A stretch of DNA of 64,000 nt from NCBI GenBank assembly GCA_043826565.1, contig JBDRPX010000003.1, positions 3,614 through 67,613 on the forward strand, given 5' to 3'. Source of the DNA: Candidatus Omnitrophota bacterium (GTDB lineage Bacteria; Omnitrophota; Gorgyraeia; B26-G9). Made by a program: the position numbers and the translations under genes. Positions 10,399 through 46,218 of this stretch are shown here, one piece after another. The notes beneath the pieces are model-generated. The model was not told the DNA's origin, ran no database searches, and saw only the letters and a program-made list of their open reading frames with translations. How positions within the stretch are numbered: position 1 is the first letter of the stretch; each line of letters begins with the position of its first letter.

Positions 10399-10551
10399 AT
10401 AAATGTGTTAAAAAAGTAGGAAAAAAATAATATAACTTGTTCAAAAATAAGGTAATTACAAAAAACATATATAGATTTTTAGTTGACTGATTAAAGAGCT
10501 GGTAATTCAAATGTTTATTGATTAAATTGAGTGTTATGAAAATCAGGTGAT

Positions 10552-13500
10552 TTGATGTATTACTCAAACAAAAAATTCAGTCTCGGTTTTAAAATAATCG
10601 CTGCGGTGATTATCCAGGCTTTTTTGGTGACTGATATTGTTTGGGCTGCCGGTGGAGATCTCCGCTGGATAAATGATCAGGAGAATACATCACGCTCGGC
10701 TTCTAAAACTTCCTATCTTGCGCCTACCGCAAATATTAACAAAGGCATATTCCGCACAAAATTTGATTTAGTAGTTTCGCTTATTAATGCTATGGAGAAT
10801 CGGGATAATACGGAACTATTGGCTAAACATGGAATTAATGTGTTTAGTGAAAATGTCCTCTCTATTCAGGGTGAAAAAGAAACACTTTATATTTATGATC
10901 GGAATGCTGAGGGTATTCCTTTGTTCATAACCGGGGCAGAGCAAAAGATTATATTTAATGGGTATGTGATTTCTGCTGTGCCCAATGAAAATGCTGATGC
11001 GCAAAGTCTGAATGTTCCGGAGGGTCAGGCAAGTGTTCTGAGCCGGCGTGAATTTAGTGATAAGCTTAAAGTTTTGGAAACGCAGGGAAAGGACTTTAAT
11101 CAGGAGGAGGCTCTGGAATTAGTAAAGCAATCAATACTTTTAAGCGGGCTTACCGGTGGGCAGTGGAAGGATGAAAAGTGGGTTATTCAGAAAGATGCGA
11201 TTGTCTTGATGCAGAGCGGTATGGTTGTTCGGATGCCGACTTCTGCGGGTAAGACATTTGTATTTAACGGTACCGGGATATTAAGAAGCCTGGCCAATAA
11301 ACTAAATCCGGATGCGCAAAGGGAAGTATCTATTGTTCATACTGAAGAAGGCTTGATTGAAAGAGACGCGAGAAATGCCGGAAAAGTAAATGGCCGTTTC
11401 GGGCTGAAAACAGGATATGTTGTTTCACGTGATGGTAAAAGAACAGCTTATTTTGTTGATGCTAATGGACAGGAGCAGGAAACCACCGAGCAGGAGCTTT
11501 ATAAAGAAGCAAATATCGTTTATGTGAATATTTATAATTTCATCCATCGTTTTTTGGATGACCGGTTTACCGCCAGAAAAGCCGGGGATCAGGCTTTACG
11601 CTGGGGAGAGCAGACTTATTTTGTTGCCTTTGACGAAGGTGATGTTCCATTAAAGCACCATGTTTCTACGCCTTGTATAATTTCCGGAGGAGAAACCCTG
11701 AATGCGGATGATCTCGTGAAGCGGGCGGAACAGCTGCTTAAGATGCAGGAAATCATTGATCAGCTTATTCATGAAGGACTCTTGAATGAAGACGGAACCA
11801 GGGCCGAAAATGAATTAGCGGAAGTTAAAACTGGTTCTCAGACCGCGACTCTTACGAGAAAAGGAAAAGCCTGGCTTAAAGATAAACTTCAGCAGGTAGA
11901 GCAATACAAAAATAATCAAGGTAAACAATCTATTTTTGCGGATGATGCTTTATGGGAAGAGCATGTCGAGCAAGCGCTTTCCGCTTATTTATTTTACCGT
12001 AAAGGTGAAGCCTATAATATCTCCGAGAATAATGAAATCGTGATCATTGATAAAGATACCAGCGGTATGCAGTTAGCCGGAAGGCGCTGGAGCCATGGAC
12101 TTGATATTGCGGTAAGGTTAAAAGAAAACAGAACCAGAGATGAAAACAGTAAGCTGGAAATTAAACCTGACCAGATGACGATTGCTTCCATGATGCTTCC
12201 GGAAATCCTCAGCGATACGTTGGGACTTGTTTCCGGAATATGCGCGGCTTCGGCGACGATCAATAAAGATACCGCGGATATGTATGGTTTGGATTTTAAA
12301 TCTCTTAGCGGTGAAGCTTCCAAAAGAACAGAGCGGGTAATTATGAGTTCTGATCAGGCTGAATCAGCGCGGAATGCGCTTAAGGCAATTGATGTTCTAA
12401 AAGCGGGAGTTGCGGCTGATGAATCAATGCAGGATTGGGGCCTTCCGGAAAAATCAGGATCGGTATTAATCCGCTGTGATGGAGAAGTGCAGGTTCGTGA
12501 GTTTGCCGATTTGCTTATAGCAAATACTCAGATGAAGGGCCGGAATATCCGGCGGATTACTCAGGATGGGAAAATACTTGATGCCAGCGGCAAAGAAGTT
12601 CCGGGAATAACTATTGATGATCTTGATTCTTTGGTTAGTGATGAAACAATTGATAATGTAATAATTGAATTTACTTCCCAGAATCGCGAAGTGCCGGCGG
12701 ATGGGAAAATGCTTAAAGATCGGATAGAAGATCTTTCTCAGCATCCTAAAGTTATAATTGTATCCACACACTTAGCCGGACGCGGAGTTGATTTTAAGGG
12801 CGATGATATGGTGGTCATGTCTTTAAGCGCTGACCCGGCTGAAGAAACTGATGTGCAGTTGAGAGGCCGCGGCGGCCGTGACGGCAGAGTGGGTTACTTT
12901 TTCGGATTTTGGTCAGTCCAGGATGCGGTATTTACAAAATATACAAGTCTGGTTAATGAAGAACTGAAATATTTCACCGCTAAGGTTAAACCCGGACAAA
13001 CGCATACTTTTGAGATCACCAATGATAGTAAGACCGCGGGTGATAGTGAAAAAACTGTAATGGCAATGCGCGAAATAATAAACGCGCATAATCAGAATAT
13101 GCGGCGCGCGCAAAAAGCTTTTGGTGAATTATCATGGAATGAGGGGGATGAAAACGGTTTTGGCGAAGGTTTTGCCAGAACGCACTCCAGAGCCAGAGAG
13201 CGGATCATTTCTAAAGGAATAGAAGGATTAAATATTCCGGAGGATGTTTTAGCCGCGATCAAGACTAAAATCAGCAAGGTTGTTAAACAGAAGCGCAAAA
13301 CTCTTACCGGGATACCCAGCTCGGCAACGGTTATTTCGATATTAGAAGATGAGTTTGGGTTAAAGAATGTTGATGCTGATATTGCACAGCAAGCATTAGT
13401 TTCGGCACAATATAACCTGGAAATGGCTTTATTTACGGTTATTGCTGATGTGCTTCAGGCTAGAGCATTACAAATCGTTGATCAGCAATGGATGCGTTTT

Positions 13501-16500
13501 GTTACCGATTCAGAATACCAGAAACATCGGCTGGAAAAAGCACTGGCGAGATCGGGATATCGGAGACAGTTTATTCCCCAACAGCAGTTTGATTCGGAAA
13601 TAAGGCTGGTCATTACGGAAATTTTTGAACGGATAAATAAGGATACCAAACGGCGGCTGGGTGAAGGGGTTATCGGTCTGGCTCATCAACTTGCGGATAA
13701 AACTCCTACGGATACGGAAATGTCCGAAGCTAGCGCTGCCGCTCAACCAGACCGTGTCCCGTTTACGGCGCGCATGAAATTATTGGCATTAAAAATAATT
13801 CCTTCGGCAGTTATGATTGCGGCTAATGTCGGTCTGGCTTATGGACTGGGCTTAGTATTTAAAGGACTTACTTTAGGCGGGGTTGAAGCTGCTTCCGGAT
13901 TACCCATAATCGGAAATTTGATTACATTACTTCTCGGTTTGGGGCCGGTGGCACTTGTGGCGATTACTATTGGTACGATAATTATTGCCTGGTCACTTAA
14001 TTCTCAAATAAAAAGATTATCACAGGTTGATTCTACTATTGCGAAGATGGCTGAAGCTATTTCCTTGGGGCATAGGAAAAAAGCTAAAGAATTAGGAGCA
14101 ACGGTTGTTACTTCTTCATGGCGTAAAACTCTTACGGTTACTGCTACTTTCGCGCCGCTGGTCGCGGCCATGACTCTTTTTTCACTTTTAGGTTCTGCTC
14201 CTTTTACCGCGGGAAGTGTGGGAGTTATTGTCCTGCTGGCTTCAGCGGTATTAGGTATAATAAGTGTTGTTTCTTCCGGATTGCTCTTGGCGACTTCACG
14301 TAAAGATATGAAAAATGCCCCGAAACTTCCCATGACGGCAACAAAAAGATTTTTCCGCGGAATGATCGGAGGAGCTTTAACTATTTTAGGTATGGGAGCA
14401 TTTTTGTTCGCTTCCGGCGGCACTATGGGGCTGCCGATTCTTGCTGGTATCGCGGCGATTATTGCCAGCGGGTTTATTGCCCGTAAAATATTCTCTATAA
14501 GCAGTGATGATGTGGCCGCGAAAAAATGGGTTACTCCGATGGGTTTTGTCGCGGGTATCGCGGTCGGACTGGGAATTATTTTAGGGGTGGTCCCGTTCTT
14601 TGGCGCTCAGGTTTTTGAATCGATGACTACAGCAATGCAGACCGGAGCTATGCCCGGAGGCGGAGTGCTTAAGGTTGTGGGATATCTGGTAATGGGATTG
14701 TTTGCTTTTCAGGGAATAATGTTTGTTGGAGCTCAGCGCTATGCCGCAAAAAGAATTGCCGGGCAGGAAGGCGGGCTTACCGGAGAAACAGGACAGATAA
14801 AGCGTAAACAGCTGGGCTACATGATCAGAGCCTCAGCACTTAATGCCCGCATGGTCATGATCGCTGTCGGTGCAGTTGTCGGAATAGCTTTGCTGCTTAC
14901 CGGAGCATGGGTTGCTCCGGTTGCCGGATGGGGAATCCCGATGTGGGGCGCACGATTACTCGCTGCTTTGCCGGTGATGGCTTTATTTAGTGCCTTGGGA
15001 TTTGTTTTGCAGCGTTTTATTACTCGGGCATTAGATAAACCGGTAAATTATTCCTCTCTTGCCAAACGAAAAAGAAAAGATTTTCTCAGTATCCAATCGC
15101 AGTTAGAAAAGGTTGGCCTTAGAGATTTTTCAAATAATATCGGCGATGTAGTTAATGAATTTAAGAAGGATGTTGCTAAAACAAATAGTCCTTTGGAATT
15201 GGCTTATCAAAAGCTTGGCGGTATTTCTTCGGAAGATAAGCTTTTTCAGGCATTTCTTAATGAACTGCAGAACTCAACGCCTAATGACGGAAGATATTTT
15301 TCTCAGGCAGAGATTGATCATCTGGTTGCCAAAATACCGGAGGCATTATTAACTGCTCAACAGCGCCCGGTTTTCCGAAAAGCCGTTACCGCGGTTTTAG
15401 TTGAACTTAATCTGGCTAAAATCGGATTCGATAGATTATTCTACACTGCTTCCAATCCGGAAAAAATCACCAAAGGAATGAATTCTTTTCTTATGCCGCT
15501 TATGGGCACTTCTATGCTTGTGGCTGCTCCGACTGCTGCGGCAGTTGCCCAAAGCCAATATGCCGGAGTTCCCTATACTAATGTTGAGGTCAATGTCGCG
15601 GAAGCTCCGCAGAAGGTTCGGGATTACTATAGCACTTTAGCGGGGAAGATGTTTGAGACTGTTCCGGCAGAAGAAGATGCTGATGCCCAGGTTCTTCCAC
15701 AGCAGGGAACGATTGATTGGGGGACACAGGTTGAATCATTTACAGCTAAGCAGATAATCAGCCGGATAGAAAAAGACGCGGCGGAAAAATTTAATGCGGA
15801 TATTGAGCAAGCGCGGCAAGAAGCAGAACAAGCGCAGACCGAACGTGAGAAAATAGCGGCTAATCTGAAATTAATGGAGCTTGTTATTAACCGCAAGAAA
15901 TTTATTTTAGACCAGATTGATAAACATGCGGAGGTTACCGCGGAAGATAAACAAAAAGCAAAAGATATTTTAACCGATGTCAGCCGGCTGGAGGCACTTA
16001 TCCAGTATCAGCAGATGATTGATATGCGGGAAGAGATCCTGAATAACCAAAAAGAAAGACTGGATAAACTTCAGAAACAATTAGCTGCCGCAGCGGATCA
16101 GGTGCAAAAAGATATTCTAACGAAAACAATAGAAGATCTTAAAAAACAAATCCAGGAAGCAGAATTGACGGTTACCAGACATCGGGAAGCCTATGCAGCA
16201 CAGGCACAGGAAAAAGGAATCGATCCGCTGCTTTCTACTAAAGAGCTTACCGATCAAAAAGACCGGATGATTGCTTCGGTAATTGGTATTCCTGCCTACA
16301 TTATTAAATTGTCACAGGAAGTTGAAAGAATATTAAGTTCACAGCAGATGCTTAAACAGCAGGAAGAATTGTTGAATCTAAGGGAACAAGCCGAAGCTGA
16401 GCGTAAGAAGCAGGAAGCTGCTGAGCAAGCCAGAAGAGAAGTTGCGGAAAGAGCAGCAGCGGTAACCAGAGTAGATACGGTAACCGATGGTTCCGGACCT

Positions 16501-19500
16501 CCGCCGGAAGATAAAGAGCCGGCAGTTACACGGACAGATCCTGTTGCCGGGCCGGCTCAAAGAAGAGATTTTTCCGTGGCAGAAGTAAGCAGTGCTTATT
16601 TGAATAACGGCTACAGTCCGCAGGATGTTTCCGCTATCCTTAATACAGCAGATGCTCCGGCAACCGAAGCATTCCAGGGAATAATTCAAGCAAAAGGTGT
16701 GGCCTATTCTAAGCAGGCAATCCAGGATTTAATAAACGGCGGTTATAAAGAAGCGGATGTCTATGCCGGGGCAGTTACCGAACTTCAAATCAGAGGCTAT
16801 AATGCCGAACAGATCGTAATATTACTGCTTGATCCTGTAACCGCGGGCACAGAACCTACTGCCGAGCAGATGGAAAGAGCAAAGCTCTTAGCCGGTATAT
16901 TACTTAAAGGAGTAACCGAACAGAATAAATTGCGCGCGGCATTGGATTCTCTAATATTAATTCCGGAAAGATTAGGCGTTGATAGTCCTCCGGTTCAACT
17001 GGGAGCAATGCTTACCGGCCGGCCGTCGCTTAGTGATGTTTCTCTAAAAGCAAAACTTGACGCGCTGCAGCAGAAACTTGATAACAAAGAAAAAATCACA
17101 CAAGGTGATATTGACAGTGCTTATGATTTAGTCGAGAGAGTTCTTAAATGGCGGGTTGCTGAAACCGCATTAAAAGACATGGCTAGACAGCGGCAGCAGC
17201 AAAGGGAGCAATCAGCATCAACATTAGTTGCTCCGGTTGATGCTACAAATATTCCTCGGGCCATAATCGTAGATGAAGACGCGGATACGGTTACTATTCC
17301 CCGGGCAATAATTGTCAGCGAGGATTCAGATAATATTACTATTTCGCGAAAGAGCATTACCGAGGCTTCTCTTCCGGAGTTACCGGCATGGGGGCCTCAG
17401 AATGAAGGGATTTCAGATGTAGGAGTTTTACCGCCAAAAGACGCTATTGGTTCGGATAATATTATTATTCCCCGGGCAATAATTGTCAGTGAAGATGCGG
17501 ATACGGTTACTATTCCTCGGGCAATAATAGTTGAAGAGAATGCCGTGGCTAGCACTCCTCAACCGGATGCAGAACATATTGTCCGAAGCGGAGATCGTGT
17601 CGGTGAAGTCATGGTTGACCTGGCTTCGAATCCTACGCAGTGGCAGGCGATTGTAAATATTTACAATAAATTTGCGCATGATAATCCGCAATTGGGATTA
17701 AAATTAATCAGAGTTTCCGATGGTACTTCCGGAGTTAATATTTCCTGGGTCAATCCTGTGGATGCGGTAAATACTGCCGCGGGCTTGACCGTGACTTCTT
17801 TAGCCGATCAGCTTGCCGGTAAAAAAGCAGTTACTGCGGCAGATTTTGGTATTAGCCTGGATATTGACCTGGTGATTCGCATTGAAAGCAATGCCGACCC
17901 GCGGGCGGAAAACGCTAAGAGTAAAGCCAGAGGGCTGATGCAGATAATGAAAGAAGGAGCATTAGCCGATTGGAATAAATATCATCCGCGGGAACAGTAT
18001 TCTTTTGACGATATGTGGGACGCGGATAAAAATCGGAGAGTAGGCAGTTGGTATCTAAATCTAAGAATACCCCAGATGCTCCAGGCTAGTAATAAAGAGA
18101 TCACTTTGGAAAATATTTTATGGGCTTACAATGGCGGGATTAAAAAGGTGGTTGACGGTGTCCTTCCTAATGAAACCAGAGATTATATTAGAAAATATAG
18201 AGTCGGCCTAATAACAACCGCGGATAATCTTACGGACCGGATTACCGATCTTCTGGTCAGCAATGATATTAGAGGATTGATCCAGGTTGCCAGCGGTGCT
18301 AAGCCCGGGGAAGTCCTCGCAACTACAGCGGCGGCGCCAAAAGAGGGAACAGCAATAACTCAGGCTAAACAGCGGCTTTTAGAAGCTGTGGGGCGTTATC
18401 AGGAAATGGAACAAAGGTATCAGGAACTTGAACTGGAATATTCGCGTTACTTTGATGTTATTCAAAGCGGCGCGTATTTTCTGGATCTTAAAAAAGGTGT
18501 TATTGATGTTAATGCTGTAGCCAAGCTGAAACTGCAGTTGGAAAAGCTAAAGAAAGTTGATCTGGAATTTAGAAGAACCCAGTTGGAATTTATTCAGGAT
18601 TCTCTGGAGGCCTTAGAAGCGGAGATCAAAAAGCTGGAAGAGTCCGCGGAAACTTTACAGAGCAATGATGATATTCTGAATTCTTCCTTAGCCAGACTCC
18701 AGGAACAGATAGAAGAAACCGCAGCTAATATTACTTCTGCCGGAGTACAGATAGAAAAACTAAAGAGTTCATTGAAATTGTGGCAGCAGGCGCTTGCGGA
18801 TGTTAAAGCCGGGAAAAAGGTAAACATACCGCAATTACTGGGAATGGTCAGAGAAGAAGATAAAATATATGCCCAGCAGGTTGCCGCGGCGAAAAAAGGA
18901 GATGTTACACAATTAACCGCGGAGCAGACGAGATTGGGAATTGATCCTGATCGCGCTTTGATTATTACTAATGTACAAATTGATGCTAATGCCGTAATCC
19001 TGAATCAGGCAGGGATAGATATTAAAACGCTTAATTTGATGATCGCGAATAATCAGTGGCTAGTTCATCGTTTAGGTGATCGTGTCGAACTTGCTCCGTT
19101 TGCCGGAAGTTCTCCGGTCAAGATTGAATATTTTATTTTAGGACACAATTTAACACCTCTGGCCCGGGAAAGTGCTTTTAACACGGCGATCACCTATTGG
19201 GAAAAACAGCTCGAATGGGCAATTGCCGATATTCAATATCTGCAAAATATACGGCTTATTTCTCCGGAAGTTTCCGATGAAGAAAAGAAAATCATTCAAG
19301 GTCAGGTAAGTAATCTTCGGGATAAAGTGCAATTTGCTGAAGCTACGATCGCTGATCTTAGGGGTGATCTTGATTATTGGAAATTATCCCCCACCCAAAG
19401 AACTAATGCCCGGGCTCAGCTTGCGGTAAGGAAGTTGAAAGTAGTTAAAGGGAAAGTTTCCTTTTTTACCGACGTGTTAGCTTTGTTGAAGGATATGGAA

Positions 19501-22500
19501 GCTTTTGGCCGGAAGCAGGCCCAGGAAGGAGTAGATTACTGGCAGGTTGAAATAGATAAAGCGATAAACGAGCTTAATTTCTTAAATACAAAGATGTCAT
19601 CTTTACAAGCACAGCTGGCGGCGGATCCTACTAATGAAATGCTCAAGAAACTCATACCTATAGTTGAGCATCAGATCTCCAATAAAAAATTATATAAGAC
19701 TTTTGCCGAACATTCAAAACGGGATACGGAAAAAAATCTGGCTTATATTACTTCCGGCGGTATTGGTGAATCGCGTGCCGCGATCATTTCCCGGTTTAAA
19801 GCTCTGGCTGCCGAAGGGGCTGTTTATTATGAAGATACGACATCTTTAATCACCACCATGCTGCAATACCAGACCCTGGAGATTGATACAGGTATTGCTT
19901 ACTGGACAAAAATGAGATCTGATTCAGCTACCCGGTTAGAGCAGGTAGAAGCATATTTACAGGATTTTAATATTGATAATTTACCACTTGATCATCCGGA
20001 TAATATTTTCGGCGAAGAAGGCATCCCGGTTTCAGTTGACCGGAGAATGGCTTTGCAGCAGGCTATTCTTGATCCTAATAATGAGGCCAAAGATGCTCAG
20101 GGTAATTTTGTTTCCGCGGTCAAAGCTAAAAAATGGGCCCAGGAACAGCTGGCGGTTTTTGAACAGAGAATTACCGATGAGATGGCGAAGCCGGAAGCAG
20201 AAAGAAATCAAAGCAATTTGACTTTATGGCGCGCGGAAGTCCAAAAAAGGAAATTATATATTGCGAATGCCGATACGCAGATCAAGAAAGCAACCATATA
20301 TGTAAATACTCTGGGAATGCTTAAAGCTGCCTATATCGCGGAAAGGACATCCTTAGAATCATTAATTCCTTTATCTCGTTTAGAGCTTGATTCATTGGCA
20401 AAAAATAAGGCCTATGTATTAGGATCATCTTCGGAAACCGACGCGCAGTTTATTCAGAGAAATATTGATCTTATTAATGAAGAATTAAAATTTTATCCTT
20501 TAGCCAGACAAGCCGCGGCTTTGAAATTGGAATGGCTGGATAAAATTAAGCAGGATGCCGCGGTTATCCTTGGTGAAATATCTCCTGATACTCATTCTAC
20601 AATTGCCGCACTTGTGGCTGAGCATGAAAAAACAAAAACCGAACTTGAAAAACAGCTTGCTGAGGCGCAGGAAGGATTGCGTCTGGTCCAGGCTGAGATT
20701 AGTCAGGGCATGGCTTGGCTGGATAAACTGAATAACCGTGATCATGATGTCTTAACCCGTTTGCGGGAAAGACAGGAAAGCCGCCTGGGTCAGCTTGAGC
20801 AAATGATTCGCGCTAAGGGCAGAAAAATATATCAGGCTAATCTGATTAAAGAAGCGCAGCGTCAGATCGGCCAGGAAATTGAACGCTTAAAATCTTTAGG
20901 GGTCAGTGAGATCGCGATCGCGAACATAACCCGTAATCAGCGAAATGATAATTTCCCCATGGTTTTAGATAGAGCTTCGTTAGAAAAGTTTGTCCGTGGC
21001 CTTACCAGCAGTCCGGATGCTCCGCAGGATTTATTAAAGATAGCTCAGGAAGGTTTTACTCCGTCTAATGCCCGGGATATCTTAGCGCAGTTGGGATTGT
21101 CTTTAGAACGTATGGATCTAGGTGAAGATTATTATATTGTTACTCATCTTGGTTTTGGCGGGGAGTGGCAGGAAATGTACTTACGCTTAGGTAACTTCTT
21201 CGGTTCCCATAAAAATATTCAGGTCAGCCCGTTCATTTACACAGTGGAAGCTACGGAACCGCGGCGCGGTGCTGAGGGTATGGGATTGGTCATGGATATT
21301 ACCCCGGAAAATAAACCGATTTATTACGGTTTGGTAGTTGATATTTATAAACCAAAATATCAGCAGCTGGGCTGGGATTATTCCATGACCGAAGAAAAGG
21401 TCCGGTTAATGATCACCCAGGATTATACCATGCTGATGATGCCGGAAAAAGATGAAACCGGTAAACCGACCGGTGAGTATCGCGCGTTTGTCGGCGCGAC
21501 CATGTTCGCGGATATGCCGGCTAATTTGCAAATGGGAGAAGACCTTACAACGATTGGCGGTACTTTGCGCGCTGATCTAAAACTTACCGAAGCATTTAAG
21601 CTTAAAGGAATTATTTCCGGAGCAAGGATTATTGATCCGTATAATAAGAGATTTGAATGGGAGTTTGGGGATCAGCAATTATTCCCGGATGAAGTAAGAC
21701 GTTACGCGGCAACTGTTGAAGGACAGGAAATGAGTATGCTTTATGAACGCCTGGCCTTAGAAGTGGATATGTGGAAGCTTTTGAAAAAGAGCGGTAAACA
21801 GGTAGATACTGATCCGGCAAATAAAGAAAAGCAAGAGCGTCTGGATGCACTGGAACATCAGATCGGTAATATTAATCTGTTCTTAGAATTAGCAAAAGCA
21901 TTGCAGGATCCCCAGCAGGCAGCAACAGATCAGACTCAACAAAGAGCGAGAGAATATTATGCGGATACCACTGCTTTACTGGCTGTTTTGCAAAAGAGCA
22001 AAGATAAAGAATTACAGCCGTATATTGCTTTCTGGAAGAAACAGCAGGAGATCGCTTATATTATTAGTGAAGGTGGAAAACTGCCGCAGGAATGGACTGT
22101 TTATATGCAGGATGCGCAGACTCAGCTGAAAGCTCTTAAGAAAGTTCAGGAAACACTTGATGCCGACTTAAACTTCCAGAGAGAATTTACCATGCAGTTC
22201 TTTGTCCAGAATGAAAATAATACTGAAGGATATGATCAGGCTTCCGTGGGTATTGGGGTGGCTCATTCATTCCGCTGGAATCTGGTCGCTCCGATAGAGA
22301 CAAGAATTGCCGCAGAAGGCGCGGTTGGACAGCAGATGAATCAGGCGAGTATTGAAGTAAATAACCGTATCGGCGGTACTGACGGGGTTGATGTCGGTGT
22401 CCGGGCCAGCAGAAGAGGCGAAAGAAATACTTATATGTTTAGAGTGGCTAAGAAGGTTCTGGGTGTGGACTTAGCCGCTACTTACGGAGATCAATACGGA

Positions 22501-31500: not shown

Positions 31501-34500
31501 GCCGGCCGGGAATTGCGCAATAGCATTGCCGGTGCCAATAGAAGACACACCATGCATTATGAGGATGATCATTATTTAGGCCTGGTTCCGAGACTGATCG
31601 ATATCGACGGATTTAATACCGGCAACAGATTAGGATATATTGATATTCGTCCCGGCGGTTATGATCGGGATCAGCGTATGACAACCGGTTATCATTATGA
31701 TGTCAGCAAGATCAATGGTATCGGAACAACCATAACTGATTTTGATAAGGTCAGGCGCGGTGTTCCGACGATGATGATCTGGGATTATCATTATGAATCT
31801 CCGGTTCAGATCCACAGTGCCTTGAGGTCCACTTTTATCGAACATAATCGATATGAAACAGCCTATGATACTCAAAAGAGAGTCCGCGTGCTTAACCTTG
31901 GCAATACCGGAGAGATTATTGAAACCGGTAATGCTTCCTATAATAAGGGAGCAAAACAATGGACAGAAAATACTACTGTATTCCATACTCAAGCTCAGGG
32001 TATTGTAAGCCGCACTCAGCGCAGCCAAAGTAATATCTATGGTAAGCAGAACGCGGTATGGACAGGCAGTGAATTAATGCGTGTTCCGGCATATAACCCT
32101 GACGATATCGAGATCAGGACCGATACCTTCCGGGTAAATCCGGCTAATGGTGAATATGATCTTCTCTACCGTGTGGATGATACTTATGCCTGGAGCAATA
32201 TGCGGCGTACCGCACGTTCGCGTGTTTTTGTTGATGGAAAGCAGTATTCGACAACTTCCATACAGCAGGATATAGAAGGAAGAGATGAATTTTTGACCGT
32301 TACGTTTGATGATCTGATATTCGGCGATTTGATCATTGCCAGAACGACCAATACTTATGACGGAGCGACGGAGCGCAGAAAACAATCAGTTACGGATGTT
32401 AACGGAACGACCAGGACAACAAATGATACAACTGGAGTTACTAAACTTCCGGATGGAAGCTTTATTGAACAAGTTCGGATAACTCCGGCATATGGAATGT
32501 CCCGTGAAGCATTATTTCCGATAACCAATAATTATTACGGCCGGCATTTACGCGAAACCTTGGCCAATGGATATTTTGCTCTGCCGGAATGGATCGAAGG
32601 TACCGGTCTTGCCAGAAATGTGGTCTTAAGTAAGCCGGACGGAACAGTAGTCAATATTTTTGGTAAGAGACTGCATACAGAATTACCGAATAGCGATTAT
32701 GATGAATCCTATATCTACCGCAATGCCGTATTTGATCCGCAGAATAGAATGTCGGAAGATAATATGCTTATGAGCACAAAGGCGATGTATCCGGGCACAG
32801 AATTGGGATTATATAGTATTGCCGGAAAAGAACAGACTTATTTTAATCTGCTGGTTCCTTTTGAATATCCGCTGGTAACCCGCTACGCCGAACAGGGCGG
32901 ATTCAGAGCTCAATTGCACAGAATGTATGATCCTAATGTAACAGCACAGATTAATCGGGTTACCCGGGTATATCAACAGCCGGAAACTCCGGAAGGAGCT
33001 ATCCCGGCCGGCGGAGAAATGCTGGATTTAAGAGATATTGATCTGAGAGGTTTTAAACCGCGGAAGGTCACGGAAAAATCTCAGGATATTCTGGGCGGAT
33101 TAACCGGTTTACAATGGGGAATCACCGAGATCGCTCCCCGGGCGGTCTATGACGGAGCGGATATATTATCCCGTACGGTTACTGAAGAAATAGAAAAAGT
33201 AGGATTTACCTATGCTGCCGGTTTTCTTGTCGATAGAAACAACGGAGAGTATGGATTTGCCGCTTCCAGACAGACAGCGCAGGATATCCCGATTAATCAG
33301 GGTGCCTCAACAGCACAGGATAAAGAGCGGGAAATTCCTACGGCAATGACGATTAAAAAGCTTGACGGAGGAGCATTCCGTACAATTAACCTTACCTTAG
33401 ATAGAGTTTCCCGTAATAATCCTTATTTTCCTTATGTAAAAGGTATGGAATGGAGAGTATATCGAGTAGAGCGGGAAATGGTCAGCGGTAAAAAAGGATA
33501 TACCTCGGAGTATTGGTTTGATGTCCGCGGTAATATGTGGTGCATGATCGATTCTGATTTTGAAGAAGCTGAAGATTACAGTTTGTTTGGTTTTATGAAA
33601 GGGAAAAAAGAAAAAGTAGACCGAAAGAGAATTGTCTATCGTTTACCGGCATCGGAAGAGTATCTTGAGAATTTCCGGCGGGATGCTTTATCTGATCCGA
33701 ATAAATATGTGTTTAGCCGGCCGGATAATTTTGAACTTGCGCAATCTTATTTTCTGGGTTTTTATGTTGGCGATATTGATGTGCAGGAACTTGTGATCAA
33801 AGATGCCAGCGGTAAGGAAGTCCGGGTTGTGCACGGTAAGCCGGATTATAAAAACGGCGTTGCTCCGTTCTATAACCCGCTGATCAGCAGAGAATATGTG
33901 CCCAAGAGTGAAGAGCCGACACGCATTGTTATGGCGGAAGTCGATTCTGATGACTGGGCGAATAATAATGTCTGCATGGTTTCCAGTACTCAGCTGGCTA
34001 AAGCCGGCCTGGATATTTCCCGTATTGTTTCGGTAACGGTAAATTATCAAAGACAAACCGATACCAGCGGCCGTGAAAAACAAGGATGGATTTCCGAAAT
34101 GATTCTCATGGATAATCATGCTTCCGGGAATCGTCAGGTCAAGATGGAAGAGTTTGCCAACCGGACAATGGTTAACCGTAAGGGTATTAATAATGAGCTG
34201 ATAGTTGTCGAACGGCAGAAACCGGAAACGCTTATTGAGCAGGACCCGCTTTTCGGCCGGGATACAACTTATCAGATCTTTTTTAAAGATAAGAATTTGA
34301 AACTGGTTATTTATAACCGCGCGGAAAAGGTCCAGAAATATCCGTTTATGCTGGTCATTGATACGACTCAGCCGGATATGCCTAAACCATTATACGCTTT
34401 ATCTCCGCAGGACGGTGAATTCTACCGCATCAGCGGAGTGCAGGTTGACGGAGACAGGTTGAAGCTGGAAGCTATGCCGATCGGATTCCTGGCTCCGGAA

Positions 34501-37500
34501 TGGTATAATTATAATCCGAATGTTATTACTTTTGAGGTTCCGGAAGAAGTTATTTACGGAGTGGAAAACGCGGTGGAAGTAAAAGCCGGCCGCAGTGATT
34601 CTCTGAACCGGATCTCTTCTAATTTCTTCAGCTGGGCGTATAATAAAGTCGCGCATGGCGATAATTCCTTTAGTGACAGTATTCGTGACGCGGTACAGCT
34701 GGCCGAAGAAATGGATAAATTATATTTATTAGCGGAATCTTTTGTCGATACTGACCTGCCGCTTCCTTCGGCAGCGGCTAAGCCGATCACAATTACTCCC
34801 AGTGATGTTTTGCGGGAAAAGATCACGCCTCATGAAAACGGTCTGATCCTGCACGGAGAAGGAAATCATTATGTAAATACAGGAAAAGAAGCGCAGATGA
34901 TCCTGGAGCTTTTACGTATCGGTTACGTCGGACAGGCAAAGAGCGCGCTGGATTTTTATTGGCTTCGTTTTTATGAGGGCGGTTTGGATATGGTTTCCGG
35001 AACTTATGATGTTGAGTCCGGGGAACCGATCGAGGATGATGTGCGTTTTATCAGAAAGCCGTTCGCGGAAATGACCAGTGATGACCAAATGGCGATTGCC
35101 CGGGCCGCGCTGGCTTATTATGAAAGAACCGGCGATCAGAAATATTACGATCTGGCCAGAGATATCACGATGAGTGTACTGCGTTTATTCTATGTCGGAA
35201 AGATCACTCCGGAAGAAGCCGGCCCATCGCAATTAACGGGATTTGGCGAAGGAGTAAAAGGCCTGGCGAATGCGTACTTTAATCTGGATGAATCAGAAAC
35301 CCCAAAATTTAGACAGACTGATGATCCGCTGGCTTATGGGATTACCAAATACAGATATCGTCCGGACACATCTTTTGTTGACGGTTTTGCGAAATGGGCC
35401 CGTCCGGAAAAATATGAGATAGGTACTCAGCGCACTGCGTATCAGCTGTTAAGACGTTTGAGTACTCATGAGCGGGGAACTGATTTTGGCCGGGAGATCG
35501 CTACTCACTTAGGAGAATTAGAATCCTGGTTTGAAGAGTTTAAAAAACGATATGCCCAAAACGGAGTTGTCCCTAAAGGGATAACGGAAATTATTGAAGT
35601 TAATACCAATACTTCGGCATTGTCCAAAGAGGTTTGGACATCTTCCGCCGACTGGCTGGCCTATATAGAGCAGATGTATGATATTTACACAAAGGATGGC
35701 ATTTTTACTGATGAGGAAAAAGAATATTTAAATACTTGTCTGGACAATTTAAGAAAAGCGCATGGTTTTGAGATTAACGGGTATTGGGGGCTGGATTTTG
35801 GTATACCTTTGAGCCGTTCGCCGGCAATATCACCGGCTTTAACCTACCGGTTTATGAAAATAGCCGAATCTGTGGGCCATGAAAATACTAAGGCAATGGC
35901 CGCGATGGCCTCGGATTCTTTATTCCGCATCAAGCGGGATCTTGGATTTATCCCGGAAGTTTATACTGCTTCCGGAGCCGAACATGTATTAACTTTCCAG
36001 AGAAAAGGAGAGGCTGTCCGCAGGATTAACGGAGAATACGCCGAAGACATATTAACCAGCCTGCGTTTTGTTATTCCGCTGGCTGAGCCGGAAATGCCGG
36101 AACCGGAAACTCTGGGAAGGCAAACTTTATGGACTGCTTTATGGCAGAGAAACGCGGATTTCTGGAAATCTTACGGTTATAAAACTCCGGATCAAATAAA
36201 AGTGAATACCTTAATTAGCGGCACTTTGGTATTTCTGATCATTTGGAGCATGATGTGGTGGACATATTGGAAGATAAAACACAGTAAAAAAACACTGGAT
36301 AAAAAATACGCGAAGTCTAAAGAAAAAGGCGCGTTGATCTATGAAAATCCGAGTATACTGGCAGAGCAGGCGAGAATTGACGCGATGTTCACTCCGGCCG
36401 CGCCGGCGGAAAGTATGTTTAACGGCAGGGTTAATACCGGAGAACTGATCGCGCCTTTTACCGGAGAAATAGAAGCGCGGATCAATGCGGATCATGCTTT
36501 GCTGGAGATCAGAAAGAAAGGGAAAATAGAGCAGGCAAAAAATACGCTATTAAATCTTTTAATTGCCGACCTTGTTTCCCGCGGTTATATTGTGGATTCC
36601 GGCGGAGTAACTAACGCGTTCCTGGCATTATCCGGGCCGGAAGATATGAACTTAAATGACGTATATATGGGGCAGAGGGCCGAGATCTATAAGCTCATCA
36701 AAGCGGCGGCAGATAAATACCGCGGGGATGCGAACCGGCAAAAATATTTAGATGAGTTGAAAGGCCGGGAAGAAGAGCTTAAAAGAGTATTTTTCAGTGA
36801 CGGCCCGGTAGAAGGCAACTTCCTGGCGAATTTAAAAGTATTGTATCAGTTTATCTGGGCCTGGAGAAAAGACGTGCTCCGCAGCAAACTTGCCGAAGAA
36901 GAGGGCCTTACGGATCTTAGCGAAGCAGAGCTTGAAGAACGTTTATATAGTTCTAATGACCAATGGCTCAACGGACTAGGCGAATATTCTCTGGTCATCT
37001 CACTTATATTAAGGAAGATAATTTTTGACCGGAATAAAGACAGTAAGTTAAGTGAAGACGGAAATAAATTTAAATCACGGCTTGACCGTTATCTTGGTGA
37101 ATACGCGTTTAATATTAGAAATCTTTTAGCGGATATGAAAGATGACCCGCAGGCGCTTAATGACCAGATGGAACTTGTGTTAAGGGATATGGGAATTGCT
37201 CCGCGGGAAGATAAAGTCGCCATGGTCAAAAATAATAAGTGGATAGATATTATTTTAAAAGCCGGCGATTGGCGGGGATGGAGCGCCTGGAAAAATTTAA
37301 ATATCCCTGAGGAAAATCCCGAGAAATTCTGGGATTCTTATCAGGCTTTTAAACAGCGAGAGGGAAGTGATATCCTGGCATTGCGTTCCTGGTTCTATGA
37401 CCTGATGTCCATTTTCCCGCATTTATTAGCTTTAGCGATCAGTATTATTGCCGCAAGCAGTGGACAGTTCGGTGCCGGCTCGATATTTACCTATATCAGC

Positions 37501-40500
37501 ACTTCTTTTGCCGGTTTCTTTGCCGCGGGAATCGCTCCCTGGATCTTAGGCGGGATCGCCGCGGTCGCGCTGATCTCCACGGTTGGCGGAAAATTCGTAA
37601 AATACAAAATGCGTTTTGATAAGGATCAGCCTTATCTTGCTAAAGTAAAAGAGGGTAAGATCTGGGACGCGAATCTTTGGGAAAAAGTATCTTTGGCCAG
37701 CAGGATCGCTTTAGCTGTCGGCGCGATCTTTATGGTCCATTCTTTCCCGGCATTTACGCTTTTGCATTATATGATAAACTTTTTGTTTATCTCGGTGGCC
37801 GGGATTGAGCTCATCGGCATGGTCGTTCCGGTGCTGGAAACATTTTTCGGCACCAGATTACAGGATTTTCTGCTTTGGAGAACCGCGGTAGCTAAGAATG
37901 ACCAAGGGTCGATGGCTAAATATAACCGCCTGGAAACAGGCATGTTTAGAATTTTAAATTTTGTGTATAAATTCAAAATCGGCCGCTCAATTTTGGATTT
38001 TATCAACAGCCTGAATTTCGGGCCTTCCAAACCCGGTTCAATTCTTTTTGAATCCACGAAATATTTATTACAGCCTTCAGCTCCTTCCGGCGGTTGGCTG
38101 GGGATGATAATGGCGATAGTATCTTATATAGTCTTGACTGTAAGTTTCTTGTATGTAGGTACGTATGTCGGGCAGGCGGTTATTTCCGGATTTTTCCAGG
38201 ATGCTTTCCTGTTTGCCTGGGATGCCAAGTTCATTCTCGCGGCAGTTATTTTTGCCTTAAATAGTTATTTAATGCGTTATGCTATTTCTGTGGGCTGGTC
38301 GGCAGTGGCTTCTTTGGTCGCTGTTTTTCCGATACGTTTAGGTTTAGTTTTTGTTGTCTTTTATCTTATTTCTTTATTCCCGGTTCTGGGGTCAGGATTT
38401 GTTTTCCTGGGTCTGACCATACCGTATTTTATTCCGATCCTTTTGCTGGCCATGATGTTCGAGGAAGATATTGTAACATGGGTAACTATTCTTCGAGATA
38501 AAAGGAAAAATAAAAATTATAATGACAAACACGAAATGACTTTATTTGAATTTGCCGGCGGTGATGCCATGCGTTCATCAGTTTTTAATGATGCTAAAGA
38601 TAAAGTTGCCGAAGCTACGCATCGGGAACTGGAGCGCTGGGATTTCTTGATAAAGAAAAATGATAAAGGTATTGATTATATAAATAAGTTGCACGGCATC
38701 GAAAATAGAGATAAATTAAAGCTTTTACTGGATAATCTGCACGCGGTGGAATTCTTGCAGGGCACAACCATAGTTGACCCGTCCCAGCTTTTTGTCAAGG
38801 GACAGGAAGAAGAATGGTATGAAGATAATGATTTGCGGATCGTTTTGGAGAATGGGCATATTCCGAAAAATTTATTTGATAAGAGAATATTAGATCTATT
38901 TATAAAGACAGGAACTGTTGCAGAAGATACTAATAATCCGGGATATGTGAGGTTCGCGGAAAGTATAACTGATGAGGCAGGGTTAAATAATAATTTGAGC
39001 ACTGCTGTTACTAAGGAATTGACGGATAGATTAAAAAGAGCCCGGCCGGATTTAACAATAGAAGAGATTGACGTACTTGTTGGAAAAGAATTAGAAGGAA
39101 TAGGGAAAGAAGTAAATGAAATATGGCAGGTTGCTTCGGATATGAAGCAAAGTATTATTACCGCGATGCAGGTCAAGATGTATATGGTTTCCTTGCTTTC
39201 TTATGCCGGAGTTGCCGAAGATACCGGGACTAATTTGATCGAGATGATCCTTTCGGTTGACGGTGATCAAAAGATGAGGAATGCCAACTATGTGGTTAAT
39301 TTAGAGTCAAATTATTTCAAAGAAGATGCTAATGGCCTGCCTTCGGTAACTGATTTTTCCGACACCTCGGAACTTGGCCAGCGTTATAAAATGGCGCGCT
39401 TGATCTCGCGGTTAACTCACCGGGTTAAGCTGGTTGATTTTACAGAAGTTGTTGATGATGATGCCGAAGCTCTTTTGCGGGAATTAGCTGAGCGCGGATA
39501 CATAAACCGCGAAGGCCGGGTGCAGGAGACGTTTAAGAGATTATTGAACCGCCGCATTAACCGGAATGCTTTTAGGAGTGAAGCTTTGGTCCAAAGCCTT
39601 TTATCCGCGGGAATTATTAAGATAGATCCTCAGGATAGTAATTATGTGCGTTTTCACGGAGAAATGAGAAGCCAGTGGCAATTAGCCGAAGCTTTAAAAC
39701 AGATCGGCGGAGTGGACATTGATATGGTCGCATCTCTCTGGCAGCAGTCCAATGATGCTTCGGCAATGGAATTATCCGCCAAGTACGATGATGTTAAACA
39801 GCAGATATTTGACATTATCAAGGACAGCCATGTAAAAGCCCAGGTTGTTTTTGATGTTACTCCGTTCGGGTTTAAGTCCGCGTTTATGACCGGAAAAGAA
39901 ATGAATCCGGAAATGACCAGCCGAATTACTTCGCGTCTGATCTTAGACCGAAACGCGTATGTCGGTGATCTGAACGCGTTTTTAGTTGATTTAAAACGTA
40001 TCCGCACCGATGATACCCTGGTTGTGGTCATTCCCGGAAGAACAACCACGAATACGCTCACCTATGTGGGAAAAGCTTCGGAACTTATTGAAGCCGGGCA
40101 CCGCTCTTTTATCCGGGGCTGTATGATCATCGGCGGCCGTTCCGGAGAAAGTATTTGTACCGGCTGGGGTAATTTCCAGTCCATATCTTTGCAGAAAGTA
40201 ATGAAGATGCTCGGCGATCCGAATCTGGCGATGATGCCGACCAGCTCCCATGCTTACGCGACCCAGGGCGGATTTAAAGCGTTTATGGCCAGATTATTCG
40301 GTTTAGTGGCTTTTGACGCTGATGCCGAGCATATTAGTGAAGATGCCGCGGGTATTCATCAGGAAACAAGGATGAAGATCGGCTTGGGGATCGCGCCTTC
40401 TTTCTGGCGTTCGCGGGCTAAGTGGAGCAAATTAAGAGGAGAGAACTGGAGCCTGATGTCCTGGTTAAGCGCTTACGGCCGCTGGTCCGGAGGCCATCCG

Positions 40501-43500
40501 CAAAAGAGATTTGATAAAACTATCCAGAATATTTTAGAATACGGGCCATTATCGATCTTTGCCAAAGAGGTTAGGGCTAATTCCGGGCGCTTCTTTGACA
40601 TTGTGCTTCCGTCTTTGATTGGTATTGTTACCTATCCTTTAGCGATCAAAGCCGGTGTTTCTCCGTTTGTCGGCATATTGCTTGTTTGCTGGTACGCGTC
40701 ACTTTTATTTAACCAGATCCTGACTTTGCATGGGCTTATCCATTATATGGAAGCTGCCGGATTTAATAAAGTAACCGCGCTTTTGGGTGCGGGGATTGCT
40801 CTGTTCATGGGCTTAAATCCGGCATTTGTGATCATCGGATTCTTAGTCGGCGGGTTTATTATCGGGTTGGGAAGATGGCTGTCCATGATCGGCCCGAACG
40901 CGATCACTTTCGCGTCCCAGCTCATGGTTCATGGATTGTCTCAGCTTATCCGCCAGTCTTTAAAATTTGTCTTATCCGGTGAGGAAAAGACAGATAAAGA
41001 CGGTGTAGACGTGCGCTGGAGAACTACTGTCGGCCCGAATGAAAGTAATAAAGCTAAGCGCTATGAGACTTTTGTAAACTTTAGAACAATGGTGCGTTAT
41101 TTGGGCATAGGTATATTTGTTTTGTATTTATATGTTATTGGAAAAGACCTTGATTTTTTAAATGTTAATATGCTGCTTCCGTTTATCGGCCTGGTTGTCG
41201 GCGGCTTAGTCGGCCCGTTTACCCAAAAAATAAAAGAAGGTAAAGCCACGCCTTTAGGCGCTTTGGGCAGTTTCTTAGGCTGGGTAGCGGGATTCGGCAT
41301 CATGACCTTAGGCACAATGCTTATTCATGCCGGAATGGGTATATTCCCGTTATTAGGAGTTTTGATCATTGTGCTTCCATTTGTCGGTTTTATGGTCTGG
41401 TCTTCTAAGTATTCCCCGATGTTCCATCGGAGGATCGTCGGTTATGCGGATGTTATTAAAAAGTTCGATCTTTTTGATGGCGCAAAATTAAAACAGTTTT
41501 ATGATTTGATCGCTCATGAACCGATGTTTGATGTTAGCGGCCGCGGCCTTAAAGTGACATCTATTGATGATGTCCGGGCTTATCAAGAAAATAATACCAA
41601 GATAATTAAAGAATTCAATAATTTCGTAAAATTATTGAAAGTGCCGGATATTTCGAAAGCAAGTTTTAGCCGGCAGGATCTAGAAGCTATATTCGGAAAC
41701 AATGAAGCCTTATGGACAAAATATTTAAAAGAAGAAGCCGGAGTGTATACCGTAAAAGACGAAGTTAATACAGAGATTAAATTCCGCGTTTATCTTGATG
41801 CCAGATTTGCTAATTTTGTAGACCTGGTCAGAACAAAACAGGAATTAGGGCTTGCTCTTGAATTCAGCGATAAAGAAATTATGGATTGTTTTTATTCTTT
41901 AGACAGATTTCAGAATTTAATTGGTAATGAATTTATGGATAGAAAAAAGCGAAATTTTATCATAAATTTATTGGGGGATAAAAAAGATAAAATTTCTGTG
42001 CCGAATGCAGGAACATTAGAATTCTTTGATGAAAAGAATAAGGGTATTATTGTGGAATATAGTAAGTGGCTGTCAATATTAGAAAAAAATGTGGAATTTG
42101 ACAGGACACAATTAGAAAGAGCATTTGGTGAAAATCAGGAGTTGTGGGATAAATACTTAGAGGCTAAACTTTATGTGCTCAGTGATGGAGTAGATAAGGA
42201 TGAACTTTTGGCGTATGTAGAGAGGGTTTTCTCAGAAGAAAAACGCGAAGAGTTAAAGAAACTGATGGAAAATTCTAGGATTGAATTTAGTAAAGATGAC
42301 CTGCTTGAAATATTTGGTGAAAATGAAGAGTGGATGAAATATTTTAAAGAAGCAAATATTTATATTCTCAAGGAAGGGATTACCCCATACCAGTTTCGTG
42401 ATTATTTGGAAACAGTTATTGATAAGGATAATGAGGAAAGTGTAAGGGGGCTGTTAAATATATTAGAAGATGTTACCAAGGAATTTAGCGAGGAAGCTTT
42501 GAATGTATTGTTTGGGGAAAAGAACAAACAATGGGCTAAGTATTTAGTTGGAGTAAGCGAAGGCAGGTATAGATTTAGAGAAAATATTGTGAGATCTCTT
42601 GTGGAGGAAATAGAATTCCGCAAACATCTGGATAAAAATTTTGCCGGGTTTGCTTTATTTATCAGGGAAGAAGGAGCCTTGAGAAAACTGTTCAGCAAGG
42701 TGGATGTTTCCAAAAAATTTGATGAAGGCCGGGTCGCAAAGGAAGCTTTTGGTAATAAAAAAATAGTCGCATTACTTTTGGATAATAAAATCATTCAAAA
42801 TGATGGTGAAAATAATAAATATGTATATTTTAATAAGGATATATTGGATGAAACAGAATTAAAAAAACGTTTAGGGCAAAAAGAACTGCAGGAAGAATTG
42901 AAGGCAATAAATGCCGATGCTAAAGGTATTATTGTATCTCTTTGGCAGAAAGCTCATAGTAATTTTAGGGGGTATATGAAATGGATATACCAGTCATTTA
43001 TGCGTTCTTTCGCGATTTCCTTCTTCCTGTTCAGTTTCTTATTGGTCGTGCCTTTGCCGAGTATTTTGGTTTTTGATGTGGGAATGTATCATAAAATGGT
43101 ACTTCCGATGATCTTACTGGTGAAGTTTGTCGGCGCTCTTTTAGTAACTGTTTACGGATTTAAGATCTTAGGCCCGGTAGTAACCGGACATATTACCCGA
43201 AAGGTTCTTACCAGTAAGATTAAAGTAGTTGAGGAAAATTTCCGGCAGCTGATCAAAGAAGACCGTTTGGACCGGGCGACTTTGAGCCAGGTCAAGGCTT
43301 TATTACACCATATCAGTGTATGGATGCATCAGGAAAATTACGGCTGGGTAAAAGCGGATCTGGCAACTGTAAAACGTCTGCTTAAAGCTGCTTCTCCGGA
43401 AAGTCCGGATAGTGAAGAAGGATCAGAAATAGAACAGCCTGTACAGCCTGAACCGCAAGCACTTCCTGATGATTTTATTGCTCCGGAAATCCCGCAAGCA

Positions 43501-46218: not shown

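Follow-up and report, generated by a model that had tools for sequence, protein, structure and literature searches.

A single reading frame of 35.7 kb fills more than half of the 64,000-nucleotide stretch of DNA analyzed here (the window; contig JBDRPX010000003.1 of assembly GCA_043826565.1). It raises the questions of whether a bacterium really carries one gene of this size and what its product might do at the cell envelope. The original prediction, made from the letters alone, saw in it a multidomain envelope or cell-cell-interaction machine with a leader, a SecA-like motor, three polytopic transmembrane (TM) blocks, an SLT lytic transglycosylase, long coiled coils, glycosidase-like segments, and C-terminal helix-hairpin-helix (HhH) modules. 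Our results support the view that the frame is a genuine gene and that its product, here called the giant, belongs to the already described SecA_DEAD-type class of Omnitrophota giant proteins, whose testable defining features it shares; that it is a real gene of this class we regard as very probable. In this phylum of ultra-small bacteria, which are thought to live on or prey upon other microbes, no feature is as conspicuous or as poorly understood as the giant membrane proteins. Because the giant is small and compact for its class and nearly repeat-free, with recognizable parts that are few and well ordered, it is tractable for dissecting export and function.

The listing of open reading frames (ORFs) gives a single stop-free frame from 10552 to 46218 on the plus strand, 11,888 codons beginning with TTG, and the translation contains one stop, at its end; at this base composition such a run would occur by chance with a probability of ~1e-354. 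A codon-usage log-odds model trained on the 16 flanking ORFs only was positive for frame 0 in all 24 tiles of 1.5 kb into which the giant ORF was divided (0.24-0.39 bits/codon, compared with 0.20-0.38 in the flanks), while frames 1 and 2 scored negative and held 19-61 stops per tile. GC content across the ORF is 0.39-0.46. Altogether, the uninterrupted frame and uniform composition claimed at the outset hold up, and the giant ORF is confirmed as a genuine gene, coding along its whole length.

The window is metagenome-derived and no colinear homologue bridges aa ~4800-6050 of the giant, as might be expected if the ORF were an assembly artefact, either a chimera of the genes of several organisms or a frame from which frameshifts had been polished away. 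We consider such an artefact very improbable, since neither codon usage nor GC changes along the ORF or between it and either flank, a random join would break the frame with a two-in-three chance, and relatives described below join distant parts of the chain, P0008 linking the leader to the GH76-like and beta-rich region and locus L003 linking the leader and SecA to aa 2587-4795. Repeats are minimal as well. The only DNA repeats within the ORF are a 77-nt triplet at 17239-17531 and a 122-nt pair at 44605/45736, so few that a collapsed repeat, named at the outset as a refuting outcome, is unlikely. At the protein level, repetition comprises a C-terminal module pair (aa 11035-11459 vs 11477-11836, 44% identical across 204 aa), a repeat of 26 aa close to aa 2234 and 2306, and weak modules at aa 10344-10665. 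Moreover, the Logan contig SRR26275510_83405, an independent assembly of 13.5 kb, shows 100% identity to the window in the 6,221 bp compared, which correspond to window 45431-51651 and take in the last ~0.8 kb of the giant ORF and downstream genes; among the genes called on this contig is the C-terminal part of the giant ORF, truncated to 2,681 aa. Across 10.5-38 kb, the backing that we can offer for the assembly comes from the uniform coding statistics and colinear homologues only.

The predicted ribosome-binding site is present, and its position bears on where translation begins. The Shine-Dalgarno sequence AGGTGA (10545..10550, plus strand) lies 4 nt before an ATG at 10555 and 1 nt before the TTG at 10552, and homologues of the giant start M-x-x-x-x-K-x-Y/F with their Met aligned to this ATG. 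Because of this spacing and alignment we take ATG 10555 as the most likely true start, so that the gene would span 10555..46218 on the plus strand and encode 11,887 aa rather than the 11,888 counted from TTG; residue numbers given here keep TTG 10552 as codon 1. Farther upstream, a near-consensus promoter had been predicted, and a sigma-70-like candidate, TTGACA-17-TATACT with an extended TG, is found at 10370..10398 on the plus strand; its support is the consensus match itself, 11 of 12 positions, and it is the sole such site within 9600-10700. No Rfam family was found in the 5' leader region of the gene, no tRNA in the window, and no intrinsic-terminator-like site after the stop codon in 46219-46257 and 46642-46819.

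The class assignment draws on the N-terminal part of the giant. Residues 154-800 (11011..12951, plus strand) form the predicted SecA-like ATPase motor in the order NBD1, PPXD, and NBD2. When tiles of the protein were scanned with Pfam at E<=0.1, this part matched SecA_DEAD (PF07517, 4.7e-14), SecA_PP_bind (PF01043, 6.8e-10), and Helicase_C (1.5e-5), and the ATPase motifs are intact (GKT at 233-235, DEGD at 361, TPCIISG at 373, AGRGVD at 742, and RGRGGRDG at 771). Both the domain order and the motifs TxxGKT, DExD, TPxIISG, AGRGxD, and RGRxGRxG, those of E. coli SecA, are kept as in canonical SecA and SecA2, and the motor is a SecA-type ATPase that appears competent. It differs from these proteins in being fused into a membrane protein, in lacking the helical scaffold/wing (SecA_SW gave no Pfam match at the same threshold), and in its scores: NCBIfam SecA/SecA2 models cover it only at model positions ~80-384 of ~800, with 52-88 bits against equivalog cutoffs of 800-1,085 (NF009538, 87.8 bits vs 814; TIGR00963, 80.4 vs 800; TIGR03714, 61 vs 930). 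Searches of PDB sequences by phmmer with aa 1-5,000 and with the whole giant returned SecA fragments only.

Directly after the motor comes polytopic TM block 1, with 8-10 helices (aa 1077-1487; 13780..15012, plus strand), a conserved partner of the SecA-like motor in relatives. This motor-plus-block cassette recurs in other Omnitrophota giant fragments: a SecA-like module followed by an 8-10-helix block is also present in P0004, P0006, P0009, P0010, P0012, and P0015, and the helix block of P0006, P0009, and P0015 aligns to that of the giant. With TM helices called as hydrophobic 19-mers by Kyte-Doolittle, the whole chain contains 26-28 of them in five groups.

These features agree with those published for Omnitrophota giants. 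Of the complete Omnitrophota genomes, 93.8% encode proteins of 10,000 aa or more, 3,650 such proteins being catalogued with a mean of 22 TM helices, and a PF07517 architecture cluster is listed in the catalogue (Nielsen & Lui 2026, 10.64898/2026.06.07.730766); ORFs of more than 20 kb are found in most Velamenicoccia and Omnitrophia genomes (Seymour 2023). The published signature combines a divergent SecA_DEAD and PPXD without scaffold/wing, many TM helices, PilZ, glycoside hydrolases (GHs), a sugar transporter, and a pseudopilin (Seymour 2023; West-Roberts et al. 2023, 10.1101/2023.11.21.568195; Nielsen & Lui 2026). The earlier statement that genes of this size are extremely rare and essentially uncharacterized is thus outdated for this lineage. 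Like the SecA_DEAD giants of West-Roberts et al. and the PF07517 cluster, the giant is a multi-TM, mostly unannotated protein with Omnitrophota relatives, has a SecA DEAD and a preprotein-binding domain without scaffold/wing, and is encoded with a PilZ gene directly downstream and with GH, carbohydrate transporter, and pilin-type genes nearby. Its 26-28 TM helices compare with the catalogue mean of 22, and its 11.9 thousand aa pass the limit of 10 thousand aa used by Nielsen & Lui and lie far under the 30-thousand-aa cut-off of West-Roberts et al. Unlike the SecA_DEAD giants described, it carries its SecA module at the extreme N-terminus behind a conserved leader and contains an SLT and a GH76-like domain, and no type II secretion system (T2SS) core genes lie in the 10.5 kb upstream. 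Neither the Archaeovorin set (glycosyltransferase, methyltransferase, NUDIX, SAM-methylase, peptidase, and GGDEF) nor dockerin or TSP3 domains appeared in the Pfam tiles, and the almost complete lack of internal repeats also sets it apart from Dockerin-type giants.

Support for the assignment also comes from the relatives of the giant. A word-index search with aa 2-1050 found one protein only, P0001, a partial sequence of 1,726 aa from a Candidatus Omnitrophica metagenome-assembled genome (MAG) that aligns with the full query, TM block 1 included, at 38-43% identity. Among 1.84 billion representatives, an exhaustive HMMER search found 392 matches at E<=1e-3, 24 at <=1e-10, and 3 at <=1e-30; of the ten relatives traced to a source name, nearly all are fragments from Omnitrophota MAGs, 1,241-6,383 aa long. 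Among GTDB species-representative genomes there are two confirmed related loci, both in Omnitrophota MAGs. The search for synteny that had been proposed succeeded at L003, a locus in a marine Omnitrophota MAG. The giant ORF found there has at least 4,263 aa and matches the window protein colinearly, beginning with the leader and continuing up to aa 4795. At L006 (GCA_022013205.1, JAKLQT010000110.1), a SecA-type giant fragment also has a Peptidase_M23 domain, and a PilZ gene follows the preceding long ORF.

Toward the C-terminus, residues 6517-10946 (30100..43389, plus strand) are colinear with P0002, a protein of 4,358 aa that has a separate signal peptide. The match reaches E 7e-99 in aa 6959-8594, and in aa 9762-10293, which form the core around TM block 3, the two proteins are 41% identical. 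The P0002 gene stands alone among rpsI, rplM, DUF1501, and DUF7133 genes on the 40-kb contig JAXOUH010009119.1 of GCA_034680565.1. Unlike the giant, P0002, one of the ~4,300-aa membrane proteins of the PVC group, thus sits among housekeeping genes, and it has no SecA cassette, SLT, or HhH tail. P0008 (6,383 aa) in turn joins the leader to the GH76-like and beta-rich part. Because the C-terminal ~4,400 aa stand alone in another genome and P0008 combines modules differently, the giant gene is, as judged from these alignments, a fusion of modules that other genomes carry separately or in other combinations. The fusion with a C-terminal module from a PVC-wide family of ~4,300-aa proteins is a new detail, absent from Seymour 2023, West-Roberts 2023, and Nielsen & Lui 2026, and the pattern of module fusion bears on how giant genes arise.

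The occurrence of modules on their own (P0002, which has a separate signal peptide) or recombined (P0008, P0001, and L003) would also fit a scheme in which the ORF, read from internal starts or as a polyprotein, yields several independent products: a membrane ATPase of the SecA type, a secreted protein with SLT and coiled coils, a membrane protein resembling P0002, and an HhH tail. Proteolytic processing of giants has been raised as a possibility (West-Roberts et al. 2023). We regard this scheme as improbable, since the Pfam tiles of the giant contain no peptidase domain and the module borders show neither in-frame stops nor intergenic-like breaks in composition. Peptides mapping to the giant ORF of Velamenicoccus archaeovorus have moreover been reported, according to the sources that cite them, evidence that falls short of a full-length chain.

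If the giant is one chain, what do its middle and C-terminal parts contribute? After TM block 1 there follow ~7,000 aa of largely unannotated sequence within which the SLT and GH76-like domains lie. The SLT domain (PF01464; aa 2440-2533; 17869..18150, plus strand) scored 1.4e-10 and 41.2 bits against a gathering cutoff of 21.3, in line with the original claim. It carries E2445-S, GLMQ at 2461, and AYNGG at 2525, in agreement with the catalytic Glu-Ser (IES at 2444), GLMQ, and AYNxG motifs of SLT domains, and its catalytic motif is intact. Just before it, short repeats (17239..17531, plus strand) encode IPRAIIV-EDADTVT at aa ~2231-2327 (blastp pair aa 2234-2259 / 2306-2331), and after it a long, mostly helical region (aa 2587-4795; 18310..24936, plus strand) is colinear with the giant ORF of L003. 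Coiled-coil-like stretches were called by a heptad-register proxy at aa 1793-1960 (15928..16431, plus strand), 2661-2730, and 3347-3416; such stretches do exist, as claimed, and the long coiled coils envisaged shrink to a total of only ~680 aa by this measure.

Two glycosidase-like segments had been proposed, of which one stood. For aa 6056-6443 (28717..29880, plus strand), a three-sequence profile of the giant and two homologues, including the paralogous ORF 57374-59344, matched only GH76-type chains, with E from 1.4e-4 to 6e-4; nine GH76 entries lead the list, headed by BT_3782 (4mu9) at 1.4e-4 and Bacillus circulans Aman6 entries at ~5e-4. A two-sequence profile of aa 6140-6480 had given only sub-significant GH88 matches (E ~0.05). 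An AlphaFold model of the segment reached a pLDDT of 45, and Foldseek ranked these GH76 entries highest for it, with GH88 and GH105 next, none of them significant. A GH76-like (alpha/alpha)6 fold is thus supported by profile comparison, the profile matching no family other than that of the GH76 alpha-1,6-mannanases (B. circulans Aman6, PDB 4d4a; BT_3782, PDB 4mu9). The likeness to these enzymes has its limits in that only two helical hairpins are covered by the alignment and in the low pLDDT of the model. The second proposed segment, a helical-repeat stretch at aa 8080-8495, had no PDB match when searched as a two-sequence profile, and we rejected its glycosidase assignment.

Within the module shared with P0002, a beta-rich ectodomain and a second alpha-helical-repeat segment are accompanied by a single TM helix (aa 8551-8569), polytopic TM block 2 with 8 helices called by hydrophobicity (aa 8951-9301; 37402..38454, plus strand), TM block 3 with 6 helices (aa 10014-10282), and a TM pair (aa 10822-10867), so that all three polytopic blocks foreseen are present, together with the single helix and the pair. 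The best-conserved stretch, aa 9762-10293 (39835..41430, plus strand), consists of a soluble domain with invariant SED and RWSGG followed by TM block 3. Thirteen further fragments, labeled Verrucomicrobia, Binatia, or Omnitrophica and without a Pfam domain, contain the aa 9700-10300 core at 40-45% identity. A 14-sequence profile of aa 9762-10293 found nothing in the PDB or Pfam, and the AlphaFold model of the region had a pLDDT of 47, with Foldseek returning noise only (E>=2.8); the pLDDT of ~45-47 in this model and that of the GH76-like segment is explained by the shallow alignments supplied. A processive glycosyltransferase, suggested by the resemblance of SED/RWSGG to TED/QxxRW, was considered for this stretch and dropped, given the empty profile search, the poor model, and the Foldseek noise. 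As an observation in its own right, the SED/RWSGG domain with its six-helix bundle (P0157-P0169 and P0002) appears to be an uncharacterized family with no Pfam or PDB relative.

The C-terminal end is a duplicated module (aa 11035-11459 and 11477-11836; 43654..46059, plus strand), each copy consisting of a coiled-coil-like part and an HhH-like element, GITANALGxTVG...ERGANGAFTS. Support for the predicted HhH modules is weak: HHH_6 on one copy scored 25.4 bits, just under its cutoff of 25.6, and a profile from both copies had no PDB match.

How such a protein might be exported is the next question, and here the N-terminal leader offers a clue. The predicted leader is real in the sense that the giant begins with a basic N-terminus and a hydrophobic helix at aa 15-33, followed by GGDLRW and S-Y-L-A-P motifs, and as a whole it forms a conserved element (aa 2-61, KKFSLGFKIIAAVIIQAFLVTDIVWAAGGDLRW ... 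SYLAPTANI; 10555..10734, plus strand) that is ~50% identical to the N-termini of P0008, P0035, P0042, P0046, P0067, and P0079. Its consensus is YNLWFKIIAxxIIQAFLxxDIxWAAGGDLRW...SxLAPxxxI, also written FKIIAxxIIQAFLxxDIxWAGG ... S-x-L-A/S-P-x-x-x-I, and it is unrecognized by Pfam and NCBIfam. A hidden Markov model (HMM) built from the giant's leader and seven non-window N-termini found the same leader on three neighboring genes of the plus strand, 6991..9669 (8.9e-6), 46820..48202 (9.1e-10), and 62335..63813 (1.6e-11), and marginally on a fourth, 3486-6485. Beyond the leader, these neighbors resemble neither each other nor the giant. The same leader heads proteins of 330, 1,141, 1,527, and 6,383 aa, and leader-like N-termini recur beside SecA-type giants at L003:3-1868, L006:5005-7239, and L006:7706-9469, as well as at L004:2555-3238. 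A metagenome scan with the leader alignment yielded at least one confirmed short contig among the matches listed. In one relative, P0067, the leader, SecY (PF00344, 3.6e-36), SecA_DEAD, and PPXD are found in one chain, which ends at the contig end. We also note that P0067 and P0155 come from ENA contigs of 5.2-5.8 kb and that NCBI cluster members are labeled Candidatus Pacebacteria. At L006:10001-18464, the 330-aa leader protein P0079 overlaps by 40 nt, in another frame, the beginning of a gene that encodes at least 2,503 aa with SecA_DEAD and Peptidase_M23; a frameshift or an error in sequencing may have divided a single giant gene into these two.

These observations make it tempting to speculate that the N-terminal cassette of the giant is a dedicated translocase resembling the accessory Sec (aSec) system, in which PPXD would bind the ~60-aa leader and push clients and the giant's own ectodomain through the 8-10-helix block or a fused SecY, the giant being primarily an export machine that carries cargo. 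The leader would then be a lineage-specific targeting signal for a small secretome that includes the giant, with the SecA-like motor and membrane block, or the fused SecY of P0067, as its dedicated translocase. The sharing of a leader at ~50% identity by proteins of 330 to 11,888 aa whose other sequence is unrelated would fit such a pathway, as would its presence on window neighbors and beside the SecA-type giants of L003 and L006, the SecY-SecA chain of P0067, and the conservation of the SecA and TM-block cassette in relatives; a role of SecA-like domains in a giant's own export has already been suggested (West-Roberts et al. 2023). The likeness to aSec extends to putative clients with an unusually long, sequence-conserved N-terminal signal.

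Against an export machine stands first the rejection of TM block 1 as a SecY-like channel: phmmer against the SecY of P0067, a five-sequence profile against the PDB, and hhalign (probability 0.3%) all failed to relate the two, and the giant and the flanking ORFs scanned contain no SecY domain. Unlike the SecA2/SecY2 system, the window has no SecY2, Asp1-3, or Gtf genes, and the leader lacks KxYKxGKxW. The leader could also be an ordinary Sec signal peptide spread by local gene duplication, even if it is the only similar part among the neighbors, and binding of the leader by the motor is putative. Finally, the P0067 cluster lies on contigs of at most 5.8 kb and is of uncertain taxonomy. We therefore treat the dedicated translocase as unlikely, though worth keeping in mind, and the notion of the leader as its targeting signal as similarly doubtful; if true, a self-contained accessory-Sec-like export pathway would be built into Omnitrophota giant genes. 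SecYEG is not syntenic with giant genes (West-Roberts et al. 2023). A full-text literature search for Omnitrophota with SecY returned West-Roberts et al. only, and neither the conserved leader nor the SecY fusion is mentioned in Seymour 2023, West-Roberts 2023, or Nielsen & Lui 2026. The leader and the SecY-SecA relative are new details that do not alter the classification, and together they provide a testable handle on the export question left open by West-Roberts et al.

With moderate confidence, we instead favor a model in which the giant is an inner-membrane-anchored envelope protein of the Omnitrophota type, of the divergent-SecA sub-type, encoded by an uncultured bacterium that belongs, or is closely related, to Candidatus Omnitrophota. 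The mechanism follows West-Roberts et al. 2023 and the V. archaeovorus observations of Kizina et al. that this paper and Seymour et al. cite, and it agrees with the envelope or cell-cell-interaction role first proposed, which is also the published hypothesis for this class. In our model, the SecA-like motor and TM block 1 would drive or assist the insertion and export of the giant's own extracytoplasmic parts, and leader-tagged neighbors might be exported by the same motor. The part exposed on the cell surface would help in binding a host or prey cell and breaching its wall, the SLT domain acting on peptidoglycan and the GH76-like domain and neighboring GHs on glycans; freed sugars would enter through the adjacent MFS transporter, and cyclic di-GMP (c-di-GMP) would gate activity through the PilZ proteins. 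TM blocks 2 and 3 around the conserved domain of unknown fold make up a second membrane machine, with the duplicated coiled-coil/HhH-like tail at the end. Self-export and the attack on the wall are the weakest steps.

Several observations weigh against this model. The proposed function is drawn from the domains of the giant and from a single cultured relative with a giant of different domain content, ~85% of the chain resembles no Pfam family or PDB sequence, and the window carries no phylogenetic marker gene, its placement resting on homologues that are 24-43% identical. If the leader serves as an N-in signal or anchor, as it looks, the ATPase would lie outside the cell, and with an even number of helices in TM block 1 the SLT domain would stay in the cytoplasm; similarly implausible topology predictions have been reported for Omnitrophota giants (West-Roberts et al. 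2023). In an ungapped extension beyond the HMM-aligned region, Gly-Pro at aa 6141-6142, also present in the paralogue, apparently stands opposite the Asp-Asp dyad D124-D125 of BcGH76, a departure from the GH76 mannanases. Moreover, T2SS/pilus and GH2 genes flanking the giant gene are the rule in published work, and unlike this typical arrangement no T2SS secretin, ATPase, or platform genes were found within 10.5 kb upstream.

The cultured relative allows a comparison. As related in PMC10066038 and by West-Roberts et al., the giant of V. archaeovorus LiM has 39,678 aa and 42 TM helices and is backed by proteomic evidence (Kizina et al. 2022). Both are multi-TM giants, and that of V. archaeovorus is described in these sources as a surface protein of an episymbiont or predator, proposed to degrade the surface polymers of its target; the likeness is one of description only. 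The V. archaeovorus protein exceeds the one studied here 3.3-fold in length, is built from other domains, and alone has proteomic evidence on its side.

The genes around the giant, all on the plus strand like every window ORF of at least 150 aa (n=18) apart from one shadow ORF, include those invoked in the model. PilZ-domain genes lie immediately upstream (9689..10054, PF07238 1.1e-8) and immediately downstream (46258..46641, PF07238 1.9e-9) and are paralogues of each other; the downstream one begins 40 nt past the stop codon of the giant, and co-transcription of both genes is possible. An MFS_2 sugar-type transporter (48431..49918, 7.5e-57) is followed by a TIM-barrel GH (GH2_C / GH72-like, 49927..51822) and a paralogous, GH2_C-like TIM-barrel GH (54135..55421), and a gene for a GspJ-like type II secretion pseudopilin (N_methyl and T2SSJ by Pfam) is located at 61479..62189. 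A TPR protein gene is also found downstream. The four large upstream ORFs (539, 584, 999, and 892 aa; window 15-9669) had no match in Pfam, NCBIfam, or PHROGs. A phage or mobile-element origin, considered as all genes share one strand, was rejected: PHROGs gave only a TPR family of unknown function, and megablast gave no match to phage genomes.

Two further observations concern genes downstream of the giant. Between both GH genes, 51807-52484, 52568-53218, and 53388-54044 encode three tandem paralogous small proteins that are 40-71% identical; they are without a family match and have signal-peptide-like N-termini and a common GVFGVYYDRG.RNNH..PSGWMGD.GD motif. Finally, the gene at 57374..59344 (plus strand) encodes a stand-alone paralogue of the giant's GH76-like segment (1.6e-14), a protein of 656 aa in which the C-terminal 340 aa are paralogous to giant aa 6056-6443 and the N-terminus is weakly PilZ-like (E 0.03). 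By its predicted domains, this product may be a c-di-GMP-responsive glycan-binding or glycan-cleaving protein.

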